Positions 20,359 to 39,399 of a stretch of DNA of 64,000 bases are shown piece after piece. The notes below the pieces were generated by a model. It saw only the letters and a list, made by a program, of their open reading frames with translations. It made no database searches and was not told the origin of the DNA. Position 1 is the first letter of the stretch; every line of letters begins with the position of its first letter. This stretch comes from a bacterium (lineage in GTDB: Bacteria > Patescibacteriota > Microgenomatia > JAMCZE01): NCBI GenBank assembly GCA_021836035.1, contig JAKBJL010000004.1, positions 67,841-131,840 of the forward strand, given 5' to 3'. The position numbers were made by a program, and so were the translations under genes.

Positions 20359-21148
20359 GAGAAGACCAAATGGGTTTCAAACATACGAATAAATCGGTAT
20401 GTTGGGCTAACAGTAGCGATCGTGAACCACGGATATCCCCAAAACCATTCCAAAGGGAATATTAAATAATAAAAGGGCTAGGTTTGGCACAAATTCGACA
20501 GGCCTCCGATAAAAAGGAAAAAGATTCGGGCTGTTTTTTTAAGTCCTTAGAGGAAGACAACCAACACGGCAAACGTTGCTTCGGCAATTGAATTGTCCCG
20601 GACCCCCGTTTACTCTAATGGCCACAAACCGTTTGGCCCAGACGGGGTTCTTTACCAGTAAATTCTTGAGGTTTTAGCCGTTAACCCCGGGTATGGCATT
20701 AGAAGAATTGCCCCGGATCCGGGCCCGGGAAATGGACGAGCCAGACAGGTATAGAAAAAGTACCACCTTAAACACTGCAAAAGCTTGGCCAGATGGCGAA
20801 AAAGACGGAATGAAAGACGGCCACCCCAAGAGTTTGCCAACCTCATCAAAAATAGCCAACCCGCAAGACGGGTCTAGTTTATCTCGGATTTTATCTAACA
20901 GATATATAAAGATAGATACTTGTATTAGGCAACTCTTATGGACCCGTTTACCCGAGAAATTGTAGTCTGGAATGTTTCTGGTAAACAGGCTACCGAACTA
21001 GTCGGTAACGCTTTAATTGATGCCTTAATAACCACGGGCCATCTTCCAAAAACAGTTCCCTAATCGTTCCTTCTGGCCGGGGGTAGAATACACAAATTTA
21101 GGGTTTGTTAACTTAACAAGTTCACTAAAGTAATTGTATCCCGGCGGT

Positions 21149-21275
21149 GCCTTAACCCCTCCGGGCTAAACCGCTTCATAAAATTCTTATATCCCAGAAA
21201 GCAGAAGAAGTCAACCGGGTCGAAGTATGGCAAAGGAATCCCCTTCTAGGGCACCATCTCGCTCCAGGAGTAGAG
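21149..21275. repeat. Copy 1 of a ~127-bp direct repeat with a 113-bp perfect core. It overlaps the last 10 codons of the 909-aa gene and a 23-codon remnant of a lipoprotein N-terminus.
   Basis: Direct comparison with 24818..24944. Identical from gggctaaaccgcttcat... to ...gctccaggagtagag. Confidence 0.85.
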
Positions 21276-24023: not shown

Positions 24024-24848
24024 CTAGTCCAGAAGAAAACCGATTTCATTGATATGGCGGTACTGACCAGCACCGGTCGACGGAACACCGACGGGGAAAG
24101 AAGTGTCAACGATGATCAGGTCGCCGGAATGGAAATAGTGATTAACCATGTCAACCGTTTCGTCTGCAGAAACCGCCTCTACTCCCGGAACAAAATTTGG
24201 GATTTTCCAGTTCTCCCCGTTCGGTCCGTAAATTTTTGTCCAGGTCGAAACCAGGGAATTAAACATTTTAACCGAATTCTGTCTGTCAACATGCAAATCA
24301 AAAGTGACCGGATCATCCAAATTATTGTCGCGGGTAATATCAATCAGAAAACGCGCCACTCCCGGGGTGGCTTTTTTAATGCCCATAAACTTCCCCACAA
24401 TAGCGTGGTATTCCCCCGTCTTACCCCATTCTTGCCAGTTAACATTTCTTTCCGCCTTGGAAAATACTCCCTTAATTTCCGGCCAAAGACGGCGTGTAGG
24501 TTCAGGAGTATAAGTCCTTGTTGCCGCCGGGGTGGAGGTTTTTGTAGGTGTACTGGTTTTCGTCGGGAAAAGGGTCGCGGTCTCCGTCGGAGTTATCGCC
24601 ACAGTCGCTATCGGTTCGGGTGTTGCCGATGGAGCCGGCCGGGATCTGACCGGGGTCGGAGCAAAAGTTGCAGTTACCTCCGCCGTTTCGCTTGCCGTAG
24701 GAGTCCCAAATCCCCCTGTCACCGCGGGAACGGGCACCATGATGTTTTGCTCCTGTGTCTGACAGCCAACCGATAAACCCAATAACACCAGGAAAGTAAT
24801 TTTATCCCCTTGATACCGCCTTAACCTCTCAGGGCTAAACCGCTTCAT
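24024..24848 (-). CDS. Lipoprotein with a Thr/Pro-rich linker and a C-terminal domain of unknown function. The ATG at 24848 is preferred over the TTG at 24902.
   Basis: MKRFSPERL...LVLLGLSVGC lipobox, then a TPT-rich linker and a ~170-aa globular domain. Confidence 0.5.
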   Translation of the reverse strand: MKRFSPERLRRYQGDKITFLVLLGLSVGCQTQEQNIMVPVPAVTGGFGTPTASETAEVTATFAPTPVRSRPAPSATPEPIATVAITPTETATLFPTKTSTPTKTSTPAATRTYTPEPTRRLWPEIKGVFSKAERNVNWQEWGKTGEYHAIVGKFMGIKKATPGVARFLIDITRDNNLDDPVTFDLHVDRQNSVKMFNSLVSTWTKIYGPNGENWKIPNFVPGVEAVSADETVDMVNHYFHSGDLIIVDTSFPVGVPSTGAGQYRHINEIGFLLD

Positions 24849-24944
24849 AAAATTCTTATATCCCAGAAAGCAGAAGAAGTCAACCGGGTCGAAGTATGGC
24901 AAAGGAATCCCCTTCTAGGGCACCATCTCGCTCCAGGAGTAGAG
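24818..24944. repeat. Copy 2 of the ~127-bp direct repeat. Here it forms the 5' leader and first codons of the lipoprotein gene.
   Basis: See copy 1. 113-bp identical core. Confidence 0.85.
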
Positions 24945-29639: not shown

Positions 29640-29788
29640 GTCCCGTCTGGAGCTGGTGACGATACTCAGCTCGAACCTCTTCCCACTTTAGTTATTCGAG
29701 AACATTTTCCGTCTTATAACTCCTGACCTCATTTTAAAACTTAATTTGTTAAAAATTCGAATGGATATTCCAAGTTTTAAGAATTACC
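29640..29788. repeat. Copy A of a ~150-bp paralogous non-coding repeat containing a tRNA-Gly(TCC) 3'-end-like segment.
   Basis: About 75-80 percent identical to 30395..30546. Blocks shared with copy B include ggagctgg.gacg.tactcagctcg.acct and tcttataactcctga.ct.attttaaaact. Confidence 0.55.
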
Positions 29789-30340
29789 CAATGCAAACTT
29801 CTCGTTATCCAAAATCTTTGTCGCGTTATCATCCAGAGTAATTAATTCAAGATTGTCTAACTTAGTCCAATAGTCAAAATCAAGCGATTCAGCTTCCTGT
29901 AAGGCTATTTTGTACTTGTTTTTATCGAGAACTTGCAGCGTTGGATCAGTAACTTTGTAACCAGAGTTTTCTGCAACAAATAAGCCTATTCCAATGTGCG
30001 GAATATAACCCAAATCTTTTTTGAAAAACGGAGCCAAAATACCAGTATAAAGCTTATCGTGAAGCGCAATTACTTCATTATTTCCTTCTTTCAATATCAA
30101 ATTGAGCCAATGATCCCAAGATTTTTCCAATCCGCACAGATGAATCTTAAAAGTCTTTTCGTCTTTTAAAGTATCATTTATATGTTTTTCTAGCGCAGAT
30201 TTATCGATGTTTTTATCACCTACTGGGAAAACTAGAGTAATGTGTGGTTGGATGAAATCAACGTACGGATCATATTTTTGGCGAAACACGTCAATCTTTG
30301 GTGTATCTATCTTTGGTCTGAAAACTAATGCGTATAGCAT
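29777..30340 (-). CDS. Possible 2H phosphoesterase (LigT/ThpR-like) family protein.
   Basis: PHITLVF (H-x-T-x) and a second, degenerate H-box IPHIGIGLF. 187 aa. Weak assignment. Confidence 0.3.
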   Translation of the reverse strand: MLYALVFRPKIDTPKIDVFRQKYDPYVDFIQPHITLVFPVGDKNIDKSALEKHINDTLKDEKTFKIHLCGLEKSWDHWLNLILKEGNNEVIALHDKLYTGILAPFFKKDLGYIPHIGIGLFVAENSGYKVTDPTLQVLDKNKYKIALQEAESLDFDYWTKLDNLELITLDDNATKILDNEKFALGNS

Positions 30341-30394: not shown

Positions 30395-30546
30395 GTCACA
30401 TACGGAGCTGGGGACGGTACTCAGCTCGGACCTGCTATTACCACTATGGCTTTTTCTTAACTTATACAGTCTTATAACTCCTGATCTTATTTTAAAACTC
30501 AACGCTCTAAAAAGCCATCTTGATATCCCAAGCTTCAAGAGCTATG
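30395..30546. repeat. Copy B of the ~150-bp repeat. cacatacggagctgggg resembles the 3' flank, CCA and acceptor 3' strand of tRNA-Gly(TCC) at 31171-31203.
   Basis: Alignment to the plus strand at 31171-31191 (cacatatggagcgggatacgg) gives 17 of 21 identical positions. Confidence 0.5.
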
Positions 30547-31558: not shown

Positions 31559-32050
31559 CTAAAGGTACGCATTATAAAGGGCCCCGAATTTAACCATTTG
31601 TTTATCGGATATTGCTGCCATAAAGATTTGTACGGCTGTAATGTTGTCGCAAGGCAGGTTTTGGATTAATGACTCAATCTGACTATCTTCTACAAGCTCG
31701 GAGTAGTAAATCTGGCCCATTTCCTGCTCTTTTTCAGTGGCAATAACTTTCCGGTTAGTTTGGACGCCGGCTTTTGTGATAGGTCTCGGGGTCTCTTTTT
31801 GTTTAACATAAGAAACAATTTCGTTCGGGTCCAGTTGGTACTTCTCTAAAAGTAGGTAGATATTATAAAAGTCATGGTAACGAACCCGATCGCTAATGGC
31901 TCGGATTTTCTCGGCACAGATTTCTTTGATATCCATGACGGCAGCTGAAAAATCCACACCCCAGACGTTGTGGTAAGCAAGGGTGTGGGCCGGGAAAAGG
32001 ATATTTTGCAAGAAATCAATTTCAACTTTCAGTGAGCCTGGCTGAATCAA
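31559..32050 (-). pseudogene. N-terminally truncated AbiEii/AbiGii-like nucleotidyltransferase toxin fragment.
   Basis: The C-terminal motif EKIRAISDRVRYHDFYNIYLLL matches the AbiEii R..RDlYDl..L signature. The N-terminal GS/GGTAL nucleotidyltransferase motif is absent. An in-frame stop lies 8 codons upstream of the TTG start. Confidence 0.4.
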
Positions 32051-32119: not shown

Positions 32120-32863
32120 ATGAGAACTTGGGCTTTGATTACGGCTTTAATTTTAACGATAAATATTTTCTGGCTATTTCCCGTACCGGTTATGGCGGCT
32201 GGGGGAATACCGGTTTTAATGTACCATTATGTACGTAATTTTACTTATCCCGGAGATCCGGAAGGACATGTACTTTCCGTCTCTCCTGCTAATTTTGACG
32301 CGCAGATGGCTTATCTTTCTTCTCACGGCTATACCCCCATCAGTCTGGATACGGCTTATGCCATAGAAACAGGAGCCTCTCCCTCCCCCGGTAAACCAGT
32401 AGTTTTAACTTTCGATGACGGCACGATCGACTTTTATGCTAACGCTTATCCGATCTTAAAATAATACGGTTTCCGGGCAAACTCTTTCGTTATTACCGGC
32501 TTTGTTGGCGGACCCGCCTTTCTTTCTTGGAATAATATTCATGAGATGGAAAATTCCGGTTTAATTTCTTTTGAAGACCACACCATTAATCACCGTGCTC
32601 TAACCGGACTTTCCTTCGCGACTACTATGTTGGAGCTTAGTAATAGCAAAAAGATGCTAGAGGCTGAGACCGGCAGAACAGTTAATTTTATTGCATACCC
32701 AGACGGCGCTTCTAATTTACGGGTGCAAACCGAAGCTTGGGAAACTGGGTTTGTTTCCGGCTTCGGTACCTGGGGCGGGAAAATGTTTGGACCCGGCATG
32801 AACTTGCCTCGGGTGAGGGTTTACGGCAGTGAATCTTTAGCCGTTTTTGCTTCCCGTCTCTAG
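32120..32863 (+). pseudogene. Polysaccharide deacetylase (NodB/CE4 domain) interrupted by an in-frame TAA at 32462..32464.
   Basis: PVLMYHYV, LTFDDG, then ILK-TAA-YGFRANSFVITGF and HTINH. The two ORF-track ORFs (32120..32464 and 32546..32863) are in the same frame and together form a complete NodB domain. The stop sits where a Lys is expected (ILKKYG). Confidence 0.7.
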
Positions 32864-33114: not shown

Positions 33115-33118
33115 CCTG

Positions 33119-33201
33119 TGCTCTCGCCGGGACTTGAACCCGGACGCCCTTACGGGCATAGCTCCTCAAGCTATCGCGTATGCCAATTCCGCCACGAGAG
33201 C
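33119..33201 (-). tRNA. tRNA-Leu (anticodon GAG) with a long variable arm.
   Basis: Reverse complement GCTCTCGTGGCGGAATTGGCATACGCGATAGCTTGAGGAGCTATGCCCGTAAGGGCGTCCGGGTTCAAGTCCCGGCGAGAGCA. Confidence 0.85.
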
Positions 33202-33403
33202 ATTCCTACTCATTTCTCGCTCAATGCTACAGCCCATTGGTTATGAATACATTTTGGTGGACTTGGAGCGACTAATGTTGAACTGCTCCAAGAACTAGCT
33301 GATTCGATAACAGCTTACTGGGATTGTAACACTTTCGATCCTAAGATTCTCACCGATAGCTACGCCGGCACAGTGGGTCGACAGCTATTGTATAATCAAC
33401 TTT

Positions 33404-33685
33404 ATGAGTATTAGCCCGCAGCCGTCACCAGCAAATAATCAACCTGTACAGGCTCCAATCAACGCAACACCTGCATCAAGCGTACCCAGCAACCCTCCGG
33501 TTTCATGTAACGCTGCCACCGGCGAACCAATTGTTGAGATGACGAATGTCCTTCATTCAATCGACCTTAAGAGTCCAGACGCAAAGCTTAATGCTACGAG
33601 TATTGTCGGAGCGGACGGCAAACGAATCAAGCTTAATCAAGACCTCACAAACGCCAACGACTTCGAGAAAACTATTAAGAAGTAG
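33404..33685 (+). CDS. Hypothetical Pro/Ser-rich small protein.
   Basis: 93-aa ORF inside the element. Confidence 0.3.
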   Translation: MSISPQPSPANNQPVQAPINATPASSVPSNPPVSCNAATGEPIVEMTNVLHSIDLKSPDAKLNATSIVGADGKRIKLNQDLTNANDFEKTIKK

Positions 33686-33764
33686 ATCATTGAACTTCTA
33701 GCTACAATCACTCCTGCGTAAAGTTTGACAAACTTCAGTTAAAATAGATTTAGGAGGTCAAACT

Positions 33765-34163
33765 ATGGCAGACGAAACTAACGAAACAAGTCTTCTCAAC
33801 GAACTCAACGACTCAAAGTCGCCAGAGCTGGTCAATCTAGTTACCGGTGATCCTGAAGTACCGATCTTTTTTGCTAAGTGGCTTGAAAGCGGTTGTAACG
33901 CCACCGCTGCTTATAAAGCACTTCACCCAAATGTCGCTGATGCTTCGGCCAGAGTGTTGGGCTGCAAGAAATTAACATTGATTAACAAACCGGCAATTCT
34001 GGCTGCCTATGGGCTTGAGTTTGACACTTTCTTCGACCAGCTTAAGAGTGGTTTGCAAGCAGAGAAGTTTAATGAGTTCTCCGGCGAGAAAGTTGCCGAC
34101 CACAAGATCCGACTTGAATACCTCCGGCTGCTCGGTAGACTTCTTGGCATTATTCAGGAGTAA
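33765..34163 (+). CDS. Phage terminase small subunit-like HTH protein.
   Basis: FFAKWLESGCNATAAYKALHPNVADASARVLGCKKL resembles the Terminase_2 N-terminal HTH (FxxEYLxxGxNATxAYxxAGY....A...ASRLL). Confidence 0.45.
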   Translation: MADETNETSLLNELNDSKSPELVNLVTGDPEVPIFFAKWLESGCNATAAYKALHPNVADASARVLGCKKLTLINKPAILAAYGLEFDTFFDQLKSGLQAEKFNEFSGEKVADHKIRLEYLRLLGRLLGIIQE

Positions 34164-34216
34164 ATCACACCCAAAGTTTCTAATATATTAGAGTCTTTGA
34201 TATAATCGCCTCATTA

Positions 34217-34310
34217 AAGGTTGATACGGCGGGCCAACCCAAGTAAGATAATGCTCAAACCGTCCGTTGGCCGTATCCTCGGACGGTTTCGATTGGAGGT
34301 GAATTGATTT
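34217..34310 (+). promoter_or_regulatory. Promoter TTGATA-N17-TAAGATAAT plus a 5'-UTR hairpin (AAACCGTCC...GGACGGTTT) and a GGAGG RBS for the gene at 34311.
   Basis: The same promoter-hairpin-RBS arrangement recurs at 37152..37239. Confidence 0.4.
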
Positions 34311-34601
34311 ATGGCAGCAACTCAAGAACAAGAAAAAGGCAAAGAAAAAGGCGGTACCGAAGTTGGTACAGTCTACCAAGCCACTTTAGGGCATTGGCAC
34401 ATGGGTGTGTGGACAACGGCAGAGGAGGCTGAAGATGAAATCAAGGCTTTCAAACCAGACGCTACACCCTTTCAAGGTCTGCCAACGAATATCGGTGAAG
34501 TGCCTGAAGGGCAATACTACATTCAACCTCGGACACTTTTTACAAAAGACCAAGCCAGAGCAGGAGAGCTAAAAGGCAAATTGGGTAAAACAGGTAAATA
34601 G
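34311..34601 (+). CDS. Hypothetical small protein.
   Basis: 96-aa ORF with a strong RBS. Confidence 0.4.
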   Translation: MAATQEQEKGKEKGGTEVGTVYQATLGHWHMGVWTTAEEAEDEIKAFKPDATPFQGLPTNIGEVPEGQYYIQPRTLFTKDQARAGELKGKLGKTGK

Positions 34602-34673
34602 GCAATTCTTGCGCAAGGATTGTTGAAGTGGCAGGGACAACACCCTGCCATTTTTGTGGTCTATAATGGATCA

Positions 34674-36150
34674 ATGGATACGGCCGAGAAACTTGACATT
34701 ACGAAACTTCGGTATGTTTTGTATGCCCGCAAGTCCACCGACGACCCTAAGAAGCAGGTGCGCTCCATTGAAGACCAGATAGCCGAATGTCGACTGTTCG
34801 CTGCTCGTAATGTGCTCACAATAGTCGGCGATCCGATAATCGAGAAGAAGTCGGCCAAAATACCCGACCAGCGTCCTGCCTTCAAGCAAATCCTTGATGA
34901 CATCCGAGATGGTAAGTATGACGGTATCCTGTCATGGCACCCTGACCGGTTGGCAAGAAACATGAAGGAGGCCGGCGTGATAATAGAAATGCTTGATGAG
35001 GGCGTCATAAAAGACTTAAAGTTCGCTACCCATTACTTCTCAAACGACCCAAGTGGCAAGCTCCTACTTGGCATCCTGTTCACACTATCAAAACATTACT
35101 CTGACAAGCTTTCGGTCGATGCCACCCGTGGGACTAGGAGCAGACTTGCAGAAGGCAAGACGGCCACGCCGAAATACGGATACATTAACGAAGAAGGCAT
35201 TTACAGGCCAGACCCTGAAAACTTCGATTTGATGTGCCAGGCATGGATGATGAGGCGAGACGGTGTCTCGATTGAGGACATCTGCAAATTTCTTAATGAA
35301 AAAGGCTTCTACCGAATGGTCAAGTCCTCCGGCAAGAAACTCTTTGCGACTAAACAGAAACTCAGCGATATATTTCGTGATCCGTTTTACTACGGACTAT
35401 TAATACAGGCTAGTCAATCGGTCGACCTCCGGCAAATGTATAACTTTCAACCGGCTGTCAGTGAAGAAGACTACAACCTGGTACACAACTCACATATCGA
35501 AGATTTAAGCCAGGTAAGGCCCACGGTACCGCCCCCTACCCACTCCGGATCATGGTCTTCTGCTCTTTTTGCAATCGCTCAATGCGAGTCGGCCCATCAA
35601 GAAGCAGTAAGGGTAAACAGTACCTGTACTTCAGGTGCGACAACGAAGAATGTGTCCGCCAGAAACGAAGTATCCGGTCAAAGGTCATCTTTGACTTCGT
35701 GTACGAGTTCCTAACCGGTGGCTCAACTTTACGGAGAAGGAGTACCACAACTACTATGACAAGCTTGTTGAGCTTTCAGACGTTAAACGGGAGACACTCA
35801 AGATCGAACTTCACAGCAAACAGGCAGCACTAAATAGAATCAAAACAGAAATCAATGAGCTGTCAAACGGACTCTTGAAAGCTGGGGTTAGTACCATAGT
35901 CAAAGAAGAAGGTGAGGCAAGTATCGCAAGGCTAGAGCCACAACAGTTTGAGTTACAAGAAGAAATTAACCAAATCAAGGCTAAACTCCCTGATCCTGAC
36001 AAGACCAAATTAAGCTTAGAACAATTCTTGAACCCGTCAATGAACGCAGCACCAAGGCTCAAAGCCGGTAACGCCATCGCCAAAGACGCAATTTGTCGTT
36101 TAGTGTTCTTGAACTTAACAGTTAATGAGGAGAATGTATTGTCCTATTAA
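34674..36150 (+). pseudogene. Large serine recombinase copy 1, disrupted by at least two frameshifts.
   Basis: Resolvase catalytic domain YARKSTDD...QIAEC...ILSWHPDRLARN is intact up to ~35513. The zinc-ribbon segment (CSFCNRSMRVG...YLYFRCDNEEC) continues in ORF 35552..35833 and the coiled-coil C-terminus in ORF 35875..36150, each in a different frame. All segments align colinearly with copy 2. Confidence 0.7.
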
Positions 36151-36301
36151 CTCAAGGAGCCATTCGCTACCTTGCTAAAACAACGCCAAATCCTATCTAG
36201 TGGGCGGTTTGAAAAACCGCTTGAACTGGTTAATTATATCATTGCCAACCTGGACCTGCTGAATGAAACTAAGGACAAGTTGGACGATTGCTTAGCCCCA
36301 A

Positions 36302-36619
36302 GTGAGCCAGCCGGTAGACAAATCGAAAATTTATTGCTATAACACGCTTGTCACAACCAAAATCAATATGGCTGATAATTTGACTGACCTGGTTGATCTT
36401 CTGCTGAAGAATCAGCGCACGATAACAACTACTTCTGGTGAGAATGGACGCGGTGATTCAGACAGCGGATACAATCTTTCTGACGGACAAGGTGTGACCG
36501 CGGGCGGCGTTATTGTTGACCTTCGGCCTGATATTGCCGGTGAGCTGGATAATATATACTCGTCCACTATTAAACTATCTGGTTATCCTCTTACTTTAAC
36601 CACTTCTGCTTCTATCTAA
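36302..36619 (+). CDS. Hypothetical protein.
   Basis: 105-aa ORF. Confidence 0.3.
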   Translation: MSQPVDKSKIYCYNTLVTTKINMADNLTDLVDLLLKNQRTITTTSGENGRGDSDSGYNLSDGQGVTAGGVIVDLRPDIAGELDNIYSSTIKLSGYPLTLTTSASI

Positions 36620-37151
36620 AATTATCCGAAACCATTAACTTATAGTAACCAATCCACGCTCGAAGTTGTTTTTTGTTGGTTCAGCTACGCTCGAAAGTAC
36701 GTCGCTTAATAAACGATTTGCGACGTGGACCGTCAAACTGGGCTGATTCTTAATTGTCACGCCGGCGTTACAATTGCACATATCCGTGGCTTTACCTGGT
36801 AGCTTGTGGTGTCACCGCGTCAAGTGAAGCGAGATAATCCCGGTAATCAAATGCTTGACGATTCTTACTCATATTTGCGAGATAATAAATTTTGATAATT
36901 CGTGCTTAAAAACGAATTGAGAAGTAATAGGATATTACTACTTTACTATCAGTTTTATACATTAAAACCTAAGGCAATTCTTCTTTATGCAGCTTTTTCT
37001 TTAAAAATTGACGCCCGGTTGAGAAATCTACTTGGGGTTGGCTGCTGGCTTACCGACCGCAGTTTTTATGCGGCAAAAAATTAGACCAAAAGTCGCGGTG
37101 TACACAATTTGCTTTTAGGGGGTACTAGCGATAAAATCTGACTATCATAAG

Positions 37152-37239
37152 TTGATATGGCCAACCTGGGTTTGCTAAGATAATCTCAAACCGTCCCGCG
37201 GCCATATCGCTGGGCGGTTTTTGTTTGGGGGTGAGAATT
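37152..37239 (+). promoter_or_regulatory. Second copy of the TTGATA-N18-TAAGATAAT promoter with its 5'-UTR hairpin, upstream of the gene at 37240.
   Basis: Paralogous to 34217..34310. The shared block is gttgata.ggc..ccaacc..taagataat.ctcaaaccgtcc. Confidence 0.4.
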
Positions 37240-37557
37240 ATGGCAGAAAAAATGAGAGTATTTAAGACTGCAGTGCAAGACGTTCTCAATTCAGAAGACG
37301 CTGTACGAGCAGCTATTGAATCTGGGTTACCCCCAGAGGCTTTTGAATCCTTTTCAACGGTTGCTGAATCAACAATCGCTTCTTTCTGTAAGGGGTGTGA
37401 TAATTCAGGTGGCGAATCTAAACCTTGTAAGCTCGTTGGACCGGACGATCAGGCAAGATATGCGATTAGAAATTGGTGTGGTTATGCTGCGGTAAGTGGC
37501 GAGAGAGGTGAAATGACCGCCAAAGGATTTAATCGCTGGGACGCAAAGAAAAGTTAA
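37240..37557 (+). CDS. Hypothetical Cys-containing small protein. The ORF track begins at an upstream TTG.
   Basis: ATG preceded by GGGGGTGAG, CxxC..C pattern, 105 aa. Confidence 0.4.
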   Translation: MAEKMRVFKTAVQDVLNSEDAVRAAIESGLPPEAFESFSTVAESTIASFCKGCDNSGGESKPCKLVGPDDQARYAIRNWCGYAAVSGERGEMTAKGFNRWDAKKS

Positions 37558-37582
37558 TAGTCTTTATAAAAAAGAGTATAAG

Positions 37583-37613
37583 TTGGCGGGTTTAATCAAC
37601 CGCCAATTTTGTT
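37583..37613 (+). terminator. Intrinsic terminator.
   Basis: TTGGCGG-gtttaatcaa-CCGCCAA hairpin followed by TTTTGTT. Confidence 0.5.
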
Positions 37614-37728
37614 GGTCGAGAATAGCCCGTCGGCACACTAAAATGGCTAAAGTAAGCTATCGATATGGCCAACAGCACTCTTTCACCGCAAGACTTGGCT
37701 AAACCTCTTCAGAGTATTCGGTCTTAGC

Positions 37729-39334
37729 CCGAAGAAAAAGATCCCTCGCAATATCGCTATGTCTTTTACGTTCGAAAATCGACCGACGAAGACGATAACC
37801 AAGTTCGATCATTACCGGATCAGATTGTTGAATGTCAAAAGTTTGCCGAGGATAATGGGATAAATTACGACCGGGACAATATAATCCGAGAATCCTGCTC
37901 GGCAAAAGATAGCGGTATTCGTCCTCTTTTTAACAAAATGCTTGAGGATATCCGCCGAGGTAAATACGACGGTATCTTAGCTTGGCACCCGGACAGATTG
38001 GCTCGAAATATGAAAGGGGGCGGCGAGATAATCGATCTGCTGGACAAAGAGATTATCAAAGACCTCAAATTTAAGAGCTTTACTTTTACCAACGATCCTT
38101 CGGGTAAAATGCTGCTTGGGATACCTTCGTTTTGTCCAAAGAGTATTCTGACGCCCTTAGTGAGAATGTAAAGCGGGGTATCCGACGGTCACTTGAAGAA
38201 GGTAAATACGTTGGTAAGAGAAAACACGGCTATTACAAGGATAAAAATCAAATGCTTCGTCCGGATAACGCCGCTAGCTCACCCAACTTTGAATTATTGA
38301 CCAAAGCTTGGGCAATGAGACTTGAAAACAAAACCCTAGTCGAAATTGCCAATTATCTGAACGCAAATGGTTATTCGGTGCCTTTGGACAATATTGGCCG
38401 CAAGCACGAACTATTCAAAATGACGCTAAAAATCTTGTCAGAGATATTTCGGGACCCGCTGTATGCCGGGGTGCTAGTTTACGGCGAAGAGAACAAGCCG
38501 GTGGCTTTACCAGACGCTTATGACTTTATCCGTATGATTTCGGTTGACGATTTCTTACGGGTTAACCATATCGACAATCTAACCCAGATCGTCAGGCAAC
38601 GTTTCAGGGGTGCTCAACCGGGATCGAGAAAGGCAGAACTTATGAATGGATTAGTGCTTTGTCCGAAATGTGGCGAGGATATGGTAGCCGGGATTACACC
38701 TAAAAAGACTGGCCTGCGGACAATAAATTACTACTATTTCAGGTGCGATACCCCCGATTGCGCTAGACGTGGCAAGTCCGTACGAGCCAAGATCCTGCTT
38801 GATTTTATTTACGATTTTCTTGAAAACCACAAACCGAAGTCTAAAGAAGCTTATGATCGGTATCTGACTGAAATGGATAAGGTGATTAAAGAAAAAGCCA
38901 CTGCCCTCGAGAGCCACAAGAGGCGGTTACTGCTTGATAAATCAGCTTTTGACAAGAAGATTGAACGGTATAAAAACTTTCTTACCAGTCAAAAAGACTT
39001 AGACCAGACCACCAAAAAATCATTTCTGGATAGTCTTGAAAGTGCTACAGCAGCTCGTGGGCAGGTTGTCGAGTCGTTGGACGAGATAAATACTGCGATT
39101 GCTAACCAAAACCAGTCAGTTTTGTCTTATCAGAAGTTTATTGAACTATTTGACAATCTGCCTGTTATCTTGCGCCAAACCAAGGTTTTGAAAGAGAAAG
39201 ACGACATAATCAGAAAAATCTTCTTGAACCTCACTTCTGACGAGAAGAAAGTATTGTCCTATCAATTAAATCCACCTTTCGACACCTTGCTCGAAGAAGG
39301 TAGTTTTTCGAATGGTGGGCTGAAGAGGACTTGA
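37729..39334 (+). pseudogene. Large serine recombinase copy 2. It has no start codon upstream of the catalytic region and a frameshift near 38120, and its 3' end overlaps tRNA-Leu(CAG).
   Basis: An in-frame TAG is followed directly by PEEKDPSQYRYVFYVRKSTDED with no start codon between. The frame switches between ORF 37938..38171 and ORF 38132..39334 at ...SGKMLLGIPS / FVLSKEYSDALS. The zinc ribbon CPKCGEDM...YFRCDTPDC is present. Confidence 0.65.
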
Positions 39335-39399
39335 ACCTCCACCGGATTGCTCCGATACGCTCCTGAAGCGTACGCGTATACCAATTCCGCCATCAGCCC
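39313..39399 (-). tRNA. tRNA-Leu (anticodon CAG) with encoded CCA.
   Basis: Reverse complement GGGCTGATGGCGGAATTGGTATACGCGTACGCTTCAGGAGCGTATCGGAGCAATCCGGTGGAGGTTCAAGTCCTCTTCAGCCCACCA. Confidence 0.85.

Follow-up and report, generated by a model that had tools for sequence, protein, structure and literature searches.

We analysed a stretch of about 6 kb lying between two tRNA-Leu genes in a genome of the Patescibacteriota (GTDB lineage Bacteria; Patescibacteriota; Microgenomatia; JAMCZE01; assembly GCA_021836035.1). As a whole, this stretch is probably best explained as a fossil tandem array, i.e. two distinct small elements with a gene for a large serine recombinase (LSR) each, which sit one behind the other at tRNA-Leu(CAG). 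The analysis was carried out on a window of 64,000 nucleotides (contig JAKBJL010000004.1, positions 67,841 to 131,840 of the forward strand), and coordinates refer to this window unless another locus is named. The structural model proposed here is well supported by sequence comparison: a tRNA 3' end would serve as the bacterial attachment site (attB), the attachment site of the element (attP) would lie inside the LSR gene, and elements would accrete in tandem. A function of such elements as phage satellites is put forward as a hypothesis.

Two elements in tandem at tRNA-Leu(CAG)

Three GTGG cores, at 33257, 36200 and 39315, divide the stretch into an element A and an element B (Table 1). The last of these cores (39315-39318) spans the discriminator/CCA end of tRNA-Leu(CAG), where the tRNA-side arm, B', reads GTGG, 12 nt, TTGAAC. 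Repeat analysis brought out a periodicity of ~3 kb: catalytic-domain DNA, the recombinase 3' end and a promoter/hairpin region are all present in two copies at a distance of 2.9-3.1 kb, and the catalytic-domain DNA of the two modules is 71% identical. A first-pass annotation of the window had described one integrated element of ~6 kb flanked by tRNA-Leu(GAG) and tRNA-Leu(CAG). Mobile DNA integrated at a tRNA gene was indeed found, with both tRNAs identified by ARAGORN and Rfam and two LSR genes between them; the single element gave way to two of ~3 kb.

Element A was also found elsewhere. It is matched collinearly, at 75-80% nucleotide identity, by contig L002 (2961 nt, Logan SRR22387830), which has the same gene order: a 93-aa open reading frame (ORF), a 133-aa homologue of the small-terminase homologue ORF132, a small ORF and an intact LSR of 518 aa. 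The homology begins at 33254, which corresponds to L002 position 22, the DNA further left is unrelated, and the right end of L002 runs into a tRNA-like 3' end. Because L002 is collinear with it and has a different left flank, element A can be regarded as a discrete unit of ~2.9 kb in at least two genomic contexts. The same contig bears on the decaying prophage that had been suggested in the first pass: a shrunken or decaying prophage is unlikely because this intact relative is likewise ~2.9 kb long with the same gene order. Other members delimited by their core positions measure 3.6 kb (L124 element 2), 3.9 kb (L054), 4.4 kb (L124 element 1), 5.3 kb (L049), 6.0 kb (L060) and 7.7 kb (L044). Tandem arrays recur as well. 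In L003 the 3' end of another LSR lies immediately upstream of the unit, and L124 contains two complete units beside tRNA-Pro(CGG); a decayed unit occupies the same tRNA-Pro in the syntenic Daviesbacteria locus L001.

Both recombinase genes match Resolvase, Recombinase and Zn_ribbon_recom in Pfam as well as the PHROG 'integrase' family phrog_95, show the YxRKSTD motif of the catalytic serine domain and align collinearly over their full length to the intact L002 LSR. PF00239 (Resolvase) was detected at E=1.1e-22 in copy 1, the LSR of element A, and at E=6.7e-06 in the fragment of copy 2, the LSR of element B. PF07508 reached 28 bits in both (cut-off 21.1), and PF13408 reached 24.9 and 23.9 bits, slightly below its cut-off of 25.3. 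In the case of copy 1, which tblastn finds spread over three frames at 83-86% identity to the L002 protein, alignment to this protein located 1-nt deletions at ~35486 and ~35722, both outside long homopolymers, and an in-frame TAA at 36148-36150. Copy 2 is interrupted in frame by a TAG at 37726-37728, its frame shifts at ~38124, and there is no alternative start codon ahead of the catalytic serine. The lesions are real, because three independent short-read assemblies from different runs (ENA ERZ27233560, Logan SRR13170411 and SRR13170412) are 100% identical across the region. On this alignment neither LSR keeps an intact frame, so that the array's own enzymes cannot mobilise it any more.

Most of what the first pass had said of these genes stood. 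Both are pseudogenes with lesions that recur in all three assemblies, the two deletions account for the claim of at least two frameshifts in copy 1, and copy 2 is frameshifted. The overlap of ~20 nt between the second LSR and tRNA-Leu(CAG) was measured as 22 nt, the stop TGA (39332-39334) lying in the T-loop. The start that copy 2 was said to lack is present as ATG 37666, followed by the early TAG. The description of the recombinases as paralogous had to be revised, as they are not close: copy 1 is 85% identical to the L002 LSR, copy 2 is 57% identical to it in the catalytic domain and 32% in the remainder, and the best intact relatives of copy 2 (547-552 aa) reach only ~50% identity, those with a named source being from Saccharimonadales, Woesebacteria and Daviesbacteria. 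Judged by these identities, the two LSRs represent distinct lineages and no recent duplicates.

Excising both elements in silico brings tRNA-Leu(CAG) to ~55 nt from tRNA-Leu(GAG), with a predicted attB junction in which GAATACATTT is joined to TGGTGGGCTGAAGAGG. In the distant genome L053 (7454-7656) these two tRNA genes are 33 nt apart, and it is the 3' end of tRNA-Leu(GAG) that has taken up a family LSR there. This arrangement fits an original state in which the two Leu tRNA genes of the window were still adjacent, prior to insertion.

Two other explanations have to be weighed at this point. A single decaying prophage or satellite of ~6 kb, with its recombinase gene duplicated in place, would account for the layout and the conserved promoter/hairpin leader common to both modules, and for the identity of their catalytic-domain DNA. 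It is difficult to reconcile with a copy 2 so distant from a copy-1-type LSR, whose closest intact relatives are found in other genomes and assemblies of the candidate phyla radiation (CPR), with element A recurring alone behind a different left flank, with the tandem arrays of L003 and L124, and with an att-like junction (core, P' arm and tail, described below) exactly between the modules. Moreover, Pfam and PHROG scans of the ORFs yielded no capsid, portal, large-terminase, tail or lysis remnants, the first three as already stated in the first pass. Such a single element is thus very unlikely. The other explanation takes the LSR lesions as assembly or sequencing errors, or as programmed recoding, so that the recombinases would be functional. 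A systematic problem is conceivable since neighbouring genes are split too (AbiEii is reduced to a fragment, and a polysaccharide deacetylase is broken in two). Lesions at five sites and of several types, deletions that avoid long homopolymers, the lack of an alternative start before the catalytic serine of copy 2 and the identity of the three assemblies leave hardly any probability for errors or recoding.

Proposed attachment sites at tRNA genes and inside the recombinase gene

At least 1620 relatives of the copy-1-type LSR were found at E<=1e-20, and where their context was examined they stem mainly from Patescibacteria/CPR assemblies; IMG/VR viral contigs contain only distant relatives, at most 37% identical. 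Targets were counted in 25 Joint Genome Institute (JGI) metagenome loci in which the LSR C-terminus and the downstream DNA are present. In 20 of these the 3' end of a convergent tRNA is found no more than 60 nt from the LSR stop, and in L063 the LSR reads through the whole tRNA, which brings the arrangement of an LSR running into a convergent tRNA to 21/25. It is found in all 12 loci with at least 47% identity, and also at L124 and L001. The tRNA targets of the family include tRNA-Pro, Leu, Val, Gly, Gln and Tyr, and the conserved C-terminal 'SRG' of its proteins is a translated tRNA-Pro acceptor stem. With this adjacency and the differing left flanks of A and L002, the elements can be classed as discrete tRNA-site islands in differing genomic contexts. 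Altogether, A and B belong to a large, apparently undescribed family in CPR/Patescibacteria. A limited, non-exhaustive literature search found no report of tRNA-targeting LSR elements in CPR, nor of an LSR gene split by attP.

Short frames without a start codon, which we call tails, mark the left-hand ends of elements A and B as well as those of L002 and L003. The frame of LSR copy 1 would read through into the tail of element B. A hidden Markov model (HMM) of the tail was built from seven sequences; the tail of element B is one of them, so that its E=9.9e-14 is by construction and not independent. Independent orphan tails were detected with this model at the left ends of elements in L124 (5109-5252, E=1.3e-16) and L049 (3242-3403, E=9e-12), and the match is weak in L044. 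The same peptide is fused in frame as the C-terminus of the full LSRs P0063, P0089 and P0129 (554-558 aa), the first of which is the upstream LSR of the L124 tandem array. The P0089 loci have no tRNA and no second LSR, and may represent an unintegrated or plasmid-like relative that keeps attP intact. As a separate observation, the neighbours in these loci (L126, L127 and L128) are a Replic_Relax protein, a DUF87 ATPase, DNA methyltransferases and a NYN nuclease, without an adjoining tRNA. When the ends of each element are joined in silico at the shared GTGG core, the LSR continues in frame into the tail, both for A (..36199 joined to 33257..) and for B (..39314 joined to 36200..). These joints suggest an attP within the 3' end of the LSR gene itself, as appears to be the case also in the tailed relatives.

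The att direct repeats that had been expected from the first pass are not present as long repeats. Local alignment of the tRNA 3' end to the upstream DNA scored no higher than shuffled controls in 18/19 loci, an expected outcome because the enzyme is a serine recombinase. Instead, the element junctions share a core of 4-7 nt, which is GTGG in the window and GTCG at tRNA-Pro sites, together with half-site motifs. In the tRNA arms the T-loop motif T[TC]GAAC follows 12 nt after the core, as against 17 nt in the putative P' arms. We scanned spacings of 10-23 nt upstream of 22 loci. Spacing 17 gave seven matches in five loci, namely 33257 and 36200 in the window, L044 787, L054 2802, L060 2553, and L124 5116 and 9520; a TTGAAT variant occurs at this spacing in L049. 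The 13 other spacings gave two chance matches in all, one genuine tRNA aside. Several of the positions with spacing 17 coincide with tail HMM matches. An outward shift by 5 bp of the motif bound by the zinc-ribbon domain, in attP relative to attB, is a hallmark of LSR attachment sites (PMC3783163). A short core with half-site motifs offset by 5 bp is what we find here, by sequence inference only.

The following mechanism is proposed. In the circular form attP would lie within the 3' end of the LSR gene, which would encode a full LSR with a tail of ~45-50 residues. Recombination would take place at the short GTGG core, at the discriminator/CCA end, and would leave the tRNA intact. Integration would swap the last ~45-50 codons of the LSR for 7-20 codons read from the tRNA, with translation of the integrated gene often predicted to end at the TGA within the T-loop TTGAAC. 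The window shows the corresponding layout: the LSR frame runs into the tRNA and stops in the T-loop, and the detached tail frame lies at the far end of the element. A second element inserted at one of the hybrid junctions would produce the array, and frameshifts and stop codons were later acquired by both LSR genes.

Regarding known systems, the LSR modules of A118/LI, Bxb1, phiC31 and TP901-1 have the same domain set, a short core without long repeats and the 5-bp offset motif. The present elements differ from them by the tRNA 3'-end target, by an attP apparently placed in the LSR coding sequence, with exchange of the C-terminus, and by a size of 2.9-7.7 kb. Targeting of tRNA 3' ends is typical of tyrosine integrases and unusual for LSRs. 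An attP inside the element's own coding sequence is known from split integrases of the SSV1 type. Integration-dependent immunity of mycobacteriophages is likewise reported to place attP in a coding sequence of the phage, so that the C-terminus of the protein is altered (PMC3694055). In both of these cases the enzymes are tyrosine recombinases, in contrast to the serine recombinases here, and the mycobacteriophage attP cuts the repressor gene and not the integrase gene.

The small-terminase homologue, other genes and surroundings

Element A contains ORF132, which family-level evidence identifies as a probable homologue of the small terminase TerS. ORF132 itself has no Pfam or PHROG match at E<=0.1. 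Only nine close homologues were found; a nine-sequence ORF132 profile gave nothing meaningful against the PDB, and 6/9 of the close homologues match the N-terminal helix-turn-helix (HTH) of PF03592 Terminase_2 at 16-20 bits (cut-off 26.1). An exhaustive profile search returned 329 cluster representatives, mostly of 130-210 aa, which match along the whole profile. Among 118 wider relatives, 19 match Terminase_2 (best E=3.9e-9), and a profile of 118 sequences retrieved from the PDB chains of SF6 TerS only (2cmp, 4zc3, 3zqp; E=0.02-0.07). The Terminase_2/SF6 TerS match is limited to the N-terminal HTH region, profile positions 8-49 of 141. The AlphaFold model of ORF132 is poor (pLDDT 60), and its top Foldseek match, 4zc3, the DNA-binding domain of SF6 TerS, is not significant (E=0.74). 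Genomic context was the most persuasive. In the IMG/VR phage contig L021 a 49%-identical homologue (residues 22-129) lies between an HNH endonuclease and the large terminase, in the order HNH-TerS-TerL-portal-MuF-like protein, then prohead protease. Because this homologue sits beside TerL, the ORF132 family can be considered a genuine small terminase by position. The terS-like gene of the first pass therefore holds up at the level of the family and by the L021 context, and not by a match of ORF132 itself. A 129-aa ORF in L124 element 2 was also considered as TerS and rejected: it has a weak Sf6_terminase match (E=0.004) and no detectable relationship to the ORF132 family (hhalign probability 0.6%).

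Table 1. Features of the array and of its two flanking tRNA genes (window positions)
Feature	Position	Strand	Description and basis
tRNA-Leu(GAG)	33118-33201	-	left host flank, outside the element; ARAGORN; Rfam 54.2 bits
Host spacer	33202-33256		putative B arm of the original attB
Element A	33257-36199		2943 bp, bounded by GTGG cores
Tail frame of element A	33247-33411	+	start-less, ends in GGLGATNVELLQELADSITAYWDCNTFDPKILTDSYAGTVGRQLLYNQLYEY and stop; tail HMM E=4.8e-26; interpreted as the last ~50 LSR codons, now detached
Left junction of A, putative P' half-site	33257-33283	+	GTGG, 17 nt, TTGAAC; arm conserved in L002
ORF93	33404-33685	+	conserved small protein, first after the tail; no Pfam/PHROG match
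ORF132	33765-34163	+	intact, probable small-terminase (TerS) homologue; family-level evidence
Promoter-like site and leader of the ORF96/LSR operon	34221-34290	+	TTGATA-N17-TAAGAT, hairpin (~34257-34289), Shine-Dalgarno sequence (SD); promoter scan
ORF96	34311-34601	+	ORFan in variable slot before LSR copy 1; no Pfam match; PHROG weak, unannotated phrog_3034 E=0.021
LSR copy 1	34620/34674-36199	+	pseudogene, probable start ATG 34674; Pfam, tblastn to L002 LSR
Element B	36200-39314		3115 bp, bounded by GTGG cores
Tail frame of element B	36151-36342	+	ends in GRFEKPLELVNYIIANLDLLNETKDKLDDCLAPSEPAGRQIENLLL and stop; in-silico attP(B) joint in frame
A/B junction, putative P' half-site of B	36200-36226	+	GTGG, 17 nt, TTGAAC; pattern search
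83-aa ORFan	36368-36619	+	first gene of element B; 105 aa from GTG 36302; called as a gene in L005
ORF-poor stretch of element B	36620-37151		ORF list
Second promoter-like site and leader	37152-37220	+	second copy of promoter-like site, hairpin and U-tract
ORF110	37225-37557	+	ORFan in variable slot before LSR copy 2; ORF list; Pfam/PHROG scans
LSR copy 2	37666-39334	+	pseudogene, ATG 37666; Pfam, tblastn
tRNA-Leu(CAG)	39313-39399	-	putative integration target; ARAGORN, Rfam

The small protein most consistently linked to the LSR is ORF93. L002, L003 and L049 have a homologue at the corresponding place, and in L045, L046 and L057 one directly precedes the LSR; a 90-aa ORF of L124 element 2 is related as well (BLASTP E=9e-8). 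ORF93 is a candidate excision/directionality factor or regulator. The slot taken by ORF96 is variable. ORF96 has no homologue in any fetched locus, and L002 and L003 have a different 70-aa ORF and a 162-aa ORF there, respectively. The 83-aa ORF that opens element B showed no significant family match in Pfam or PHROG. In the ORF-poor middle of this element we noted a near-perfect palindrome of 24 nt (AATTGTCACGCCGGCGTTACAATT, 36752-36775).

The leader preceding the variable slot is a conserved non-coding stretch of ~120 nt, present in A, B, L002 (~1010-1089) and L003 (~1521-1648). It consists of a promoter-like TTGATA-N17/18-TAAGAT, a hairpin of 10-13 bp, a U-run and an SD. Pairing of the hairpin is kept, with one stem position changing between CG, UA and UG among four sequences only. 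Possible roles of the leader are attenuation, termination or stabilisation of the 5' end.

The cargo of other family members is unrelated and comprises a KAP NTPase, a SIR2-like protein, a MerR/HTH_17 protein and a beta-eliminating lyase. Because of this unrelated cargo, the family is seen as a general small-island platform in which the TerS-bearing units form a subset. The 7.7-kb member at L044 787-8514 contains a KAP-family P-loop NTPase, a weakly SIR2-like protein and, directly upstream of the LSR, a MerR/HTH_17 excisionase-like gene; its KAP NTPase and SIR2-like protein may be defence cargo.

Regarding the surroundings, GC content is 0.46-0.47 at 33-36 kb against a range of 0.34-0.52 in the window, a weak contrast in composition. 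Gene decay continues immediately beyond the tRNA cluster on its left side. At 31559-32050 there is a fragment of an AbiEii toxin that lacks the N-terminal part (Pfam profile positions 99-204 of 238), and two separate ORFs (32120-32464 and 32546-32863) are what is left of a polysaccharide deacetylase gene. A direct repeat of ~135 nt, 73% identical (29649-29782 and 30404-30540), stands on either side of a 2'-5' RNA ligase-like gene (29777-30340) in DNA of low GC (0.34-0.36). Another direct repeat, of ~150 nt and 93% identical (21127-21275 and 24793-24944), encloses a 3.6-kb segment of higher GC (0.48-0.52) between tRNA-Leu(TAA) and tRNA-Pro(TGG). This segment contains two large ORFan genes (909 aa and 292 aa) without Pfam match and may be another inserted element. 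Finally, two Logan contigs of different runs, L007 (window 33144-36231) and L006 (window 33156-39317), break off at the A/B junction (36231) and inside the tRNA genes; population variants or shared repeats could cause these break points in the graph.

Possible satellite function, islands and significance

The first pass had also likened the locus to a phage-satellite islet. This comparison is reasonable, and a phage-satellite lifestyle is plausible and unproven. The phage-inducible chromosomal island (PICI) and Staphylococcus aureus pathogenicity island (SaPI) class is defined by an integrase, an alpA/stl regulator, a primase-replicase and packaging/capsid-redirection genes in ~10-15 kb, and element A, with 2.9 kb, falls outside this definition. 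Of these genes only the serine integrase and the TerS homologue are present, with no primase/replicase or alpA-like match in Pfam or PHROG.

In gene combination, element A recalls the PICI-like elements (PLE) of Vibrio cholerae. These are ~18 kb long, with their own replication initiator and many interference genes, and do not integrate at tRNA 3' ends. They are reported to pair an LSR integrase with a satellite-encoded small terminase (PMC9638900; bioRxiv 10.1101/2024.04.22.590561), the combination of LSR and TerS seen in element A. The present elements differ from them in having no detected replication gene and no known helper phage or induction. Tycheposons of Prochlorococcus also target tRNA genes in a streamlined genome, and a PICI-like subset of them carries terS or a capsid gene and little else; an LSR is used by 27/937 tycheposons and related elements (bioRxiv 10.1101/2020.12.28.424599). 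In contrast to the present elements, tycheposons mostly have tyrosine recombinases, often have replication genes and belong to a different host phylum, and a split integrase gene is unreported for them. The phage-inducible chromosomal minimalist islands (PICMI) of Vibrionaceae have a minimal gene content and provide a precedent for packaging so small a satellite, in the form of a concatemer, into capsids of full size; PICMI115 has 6.1 kb with int, alpA and primase, lacks terS and integrates beside fis (PMC10803314). Element A is half this size and has TerS and an LSR, and no primase.

The intact small-terminase homologue of A suggests that intact relatives could exploit the packaging of a phage of the HNH-TerS-TerL type, as very small satellites or by interfering with it. 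In its most specific form the proposal has two parts. Firstly, intact relatives of A (~2.9 kb, with LSR, TerS and two small ORFs) would be the smallest known phage satellites, hosted by CPR bacteria and using their own TerS to divert the motor of an HNH-TerS-TerL phage. Secondly, attP in the LSR gene would act as a state switch, the circle giving a full-length tailed LSR and the integrated copy a tRNA-terminated version of different activity or stability. Taken jointly, we regard these two parts as rather unlikely. The alternative is that the elements are plain integrative islands without phage dependence, in which a TerS-like HTH protein was co-opted as a DNA-binding regulator or recombination directionality factor. 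This alternative has a substantial chance of being correct, short of being likely. It agrees with the restriction of the Terminase_2/SF6 TerS match to the HTH, with the replication and capsid-related genes missing from the Pfam/PHROG scans, with the unrelated cargo of other members, including the excisionase-like gene before the LSR of L044, and with the occurrence of TerS in only a minority of family loci. On the other hand, the alignment of ORF132 with a phage protein in the canonical TerS slot beside TerL covers residues 22-129 and thus extends beyond the HTH, the relatives of 130-210 aa match along the whole profile, and it is ORF93, not TerS, that travels most consistently with the LSR.

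Several findings weigh against the tandem array with an attP inside the LSR gene and against its link to phages. As for site history, no empty site was found: a scan of genome contigs with the flanking aminotransferase gave only relatives of 53-61% identity without synteny, and an exact look-up of the flanking EVE protein returned only the occupied configuration. No circular junction was found either, the contigs L002, L003, L004, L006 and L007 having no terminal overlaps. As for attP, the sequence is the only basis for placing the attachment sites and the crossover, few sequences went into the tail HMM, tails were found in only some family members, and the upstream LSR of L003 is out of frame with the tail. 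Only 3/240 LSR-size relatives carry the tail in frame, a proportion that is expected if most database copies are integrated. As for the small terminase, ORF132 itself stays below every curated threshold and its model is poor. An intact TerS next to decayed LSRs is not statistically meaningful, as ~0.8 disruptions are expected in 399 nt at the rate of copy 1. Element B contains no TerS remnant (a tblastn search of the window detected neither ORF93 nor ORF132 a second time), and no replication gene was detected in the elements of the window by the Pfam and PHROG scans.

The present locus is a fossil and dead. What makes it valuable is the family that it brings to light, a large and apparently undescribed group of very small integrative elements in CPR/Patescibacteria, organisms whose mobile DNA is poorly known. 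For genome engineering, in which LSRs with predictable attachment sites are sought as tools, the family offers many LSRs whose sites would be predictable from sequence, with attB at a tRNA 3' end and attP formed by the LSR 3' end and the tail region. For regulation, a serine recombinase gene cut by its own attP is suggested as a new arrangement and gives a testable idea on the control of directionality. The TerS-bearing subset, at half the size of the smallest described satellite, is a concrete candidate for phage-satellite interactions in ultra-small bacteria.

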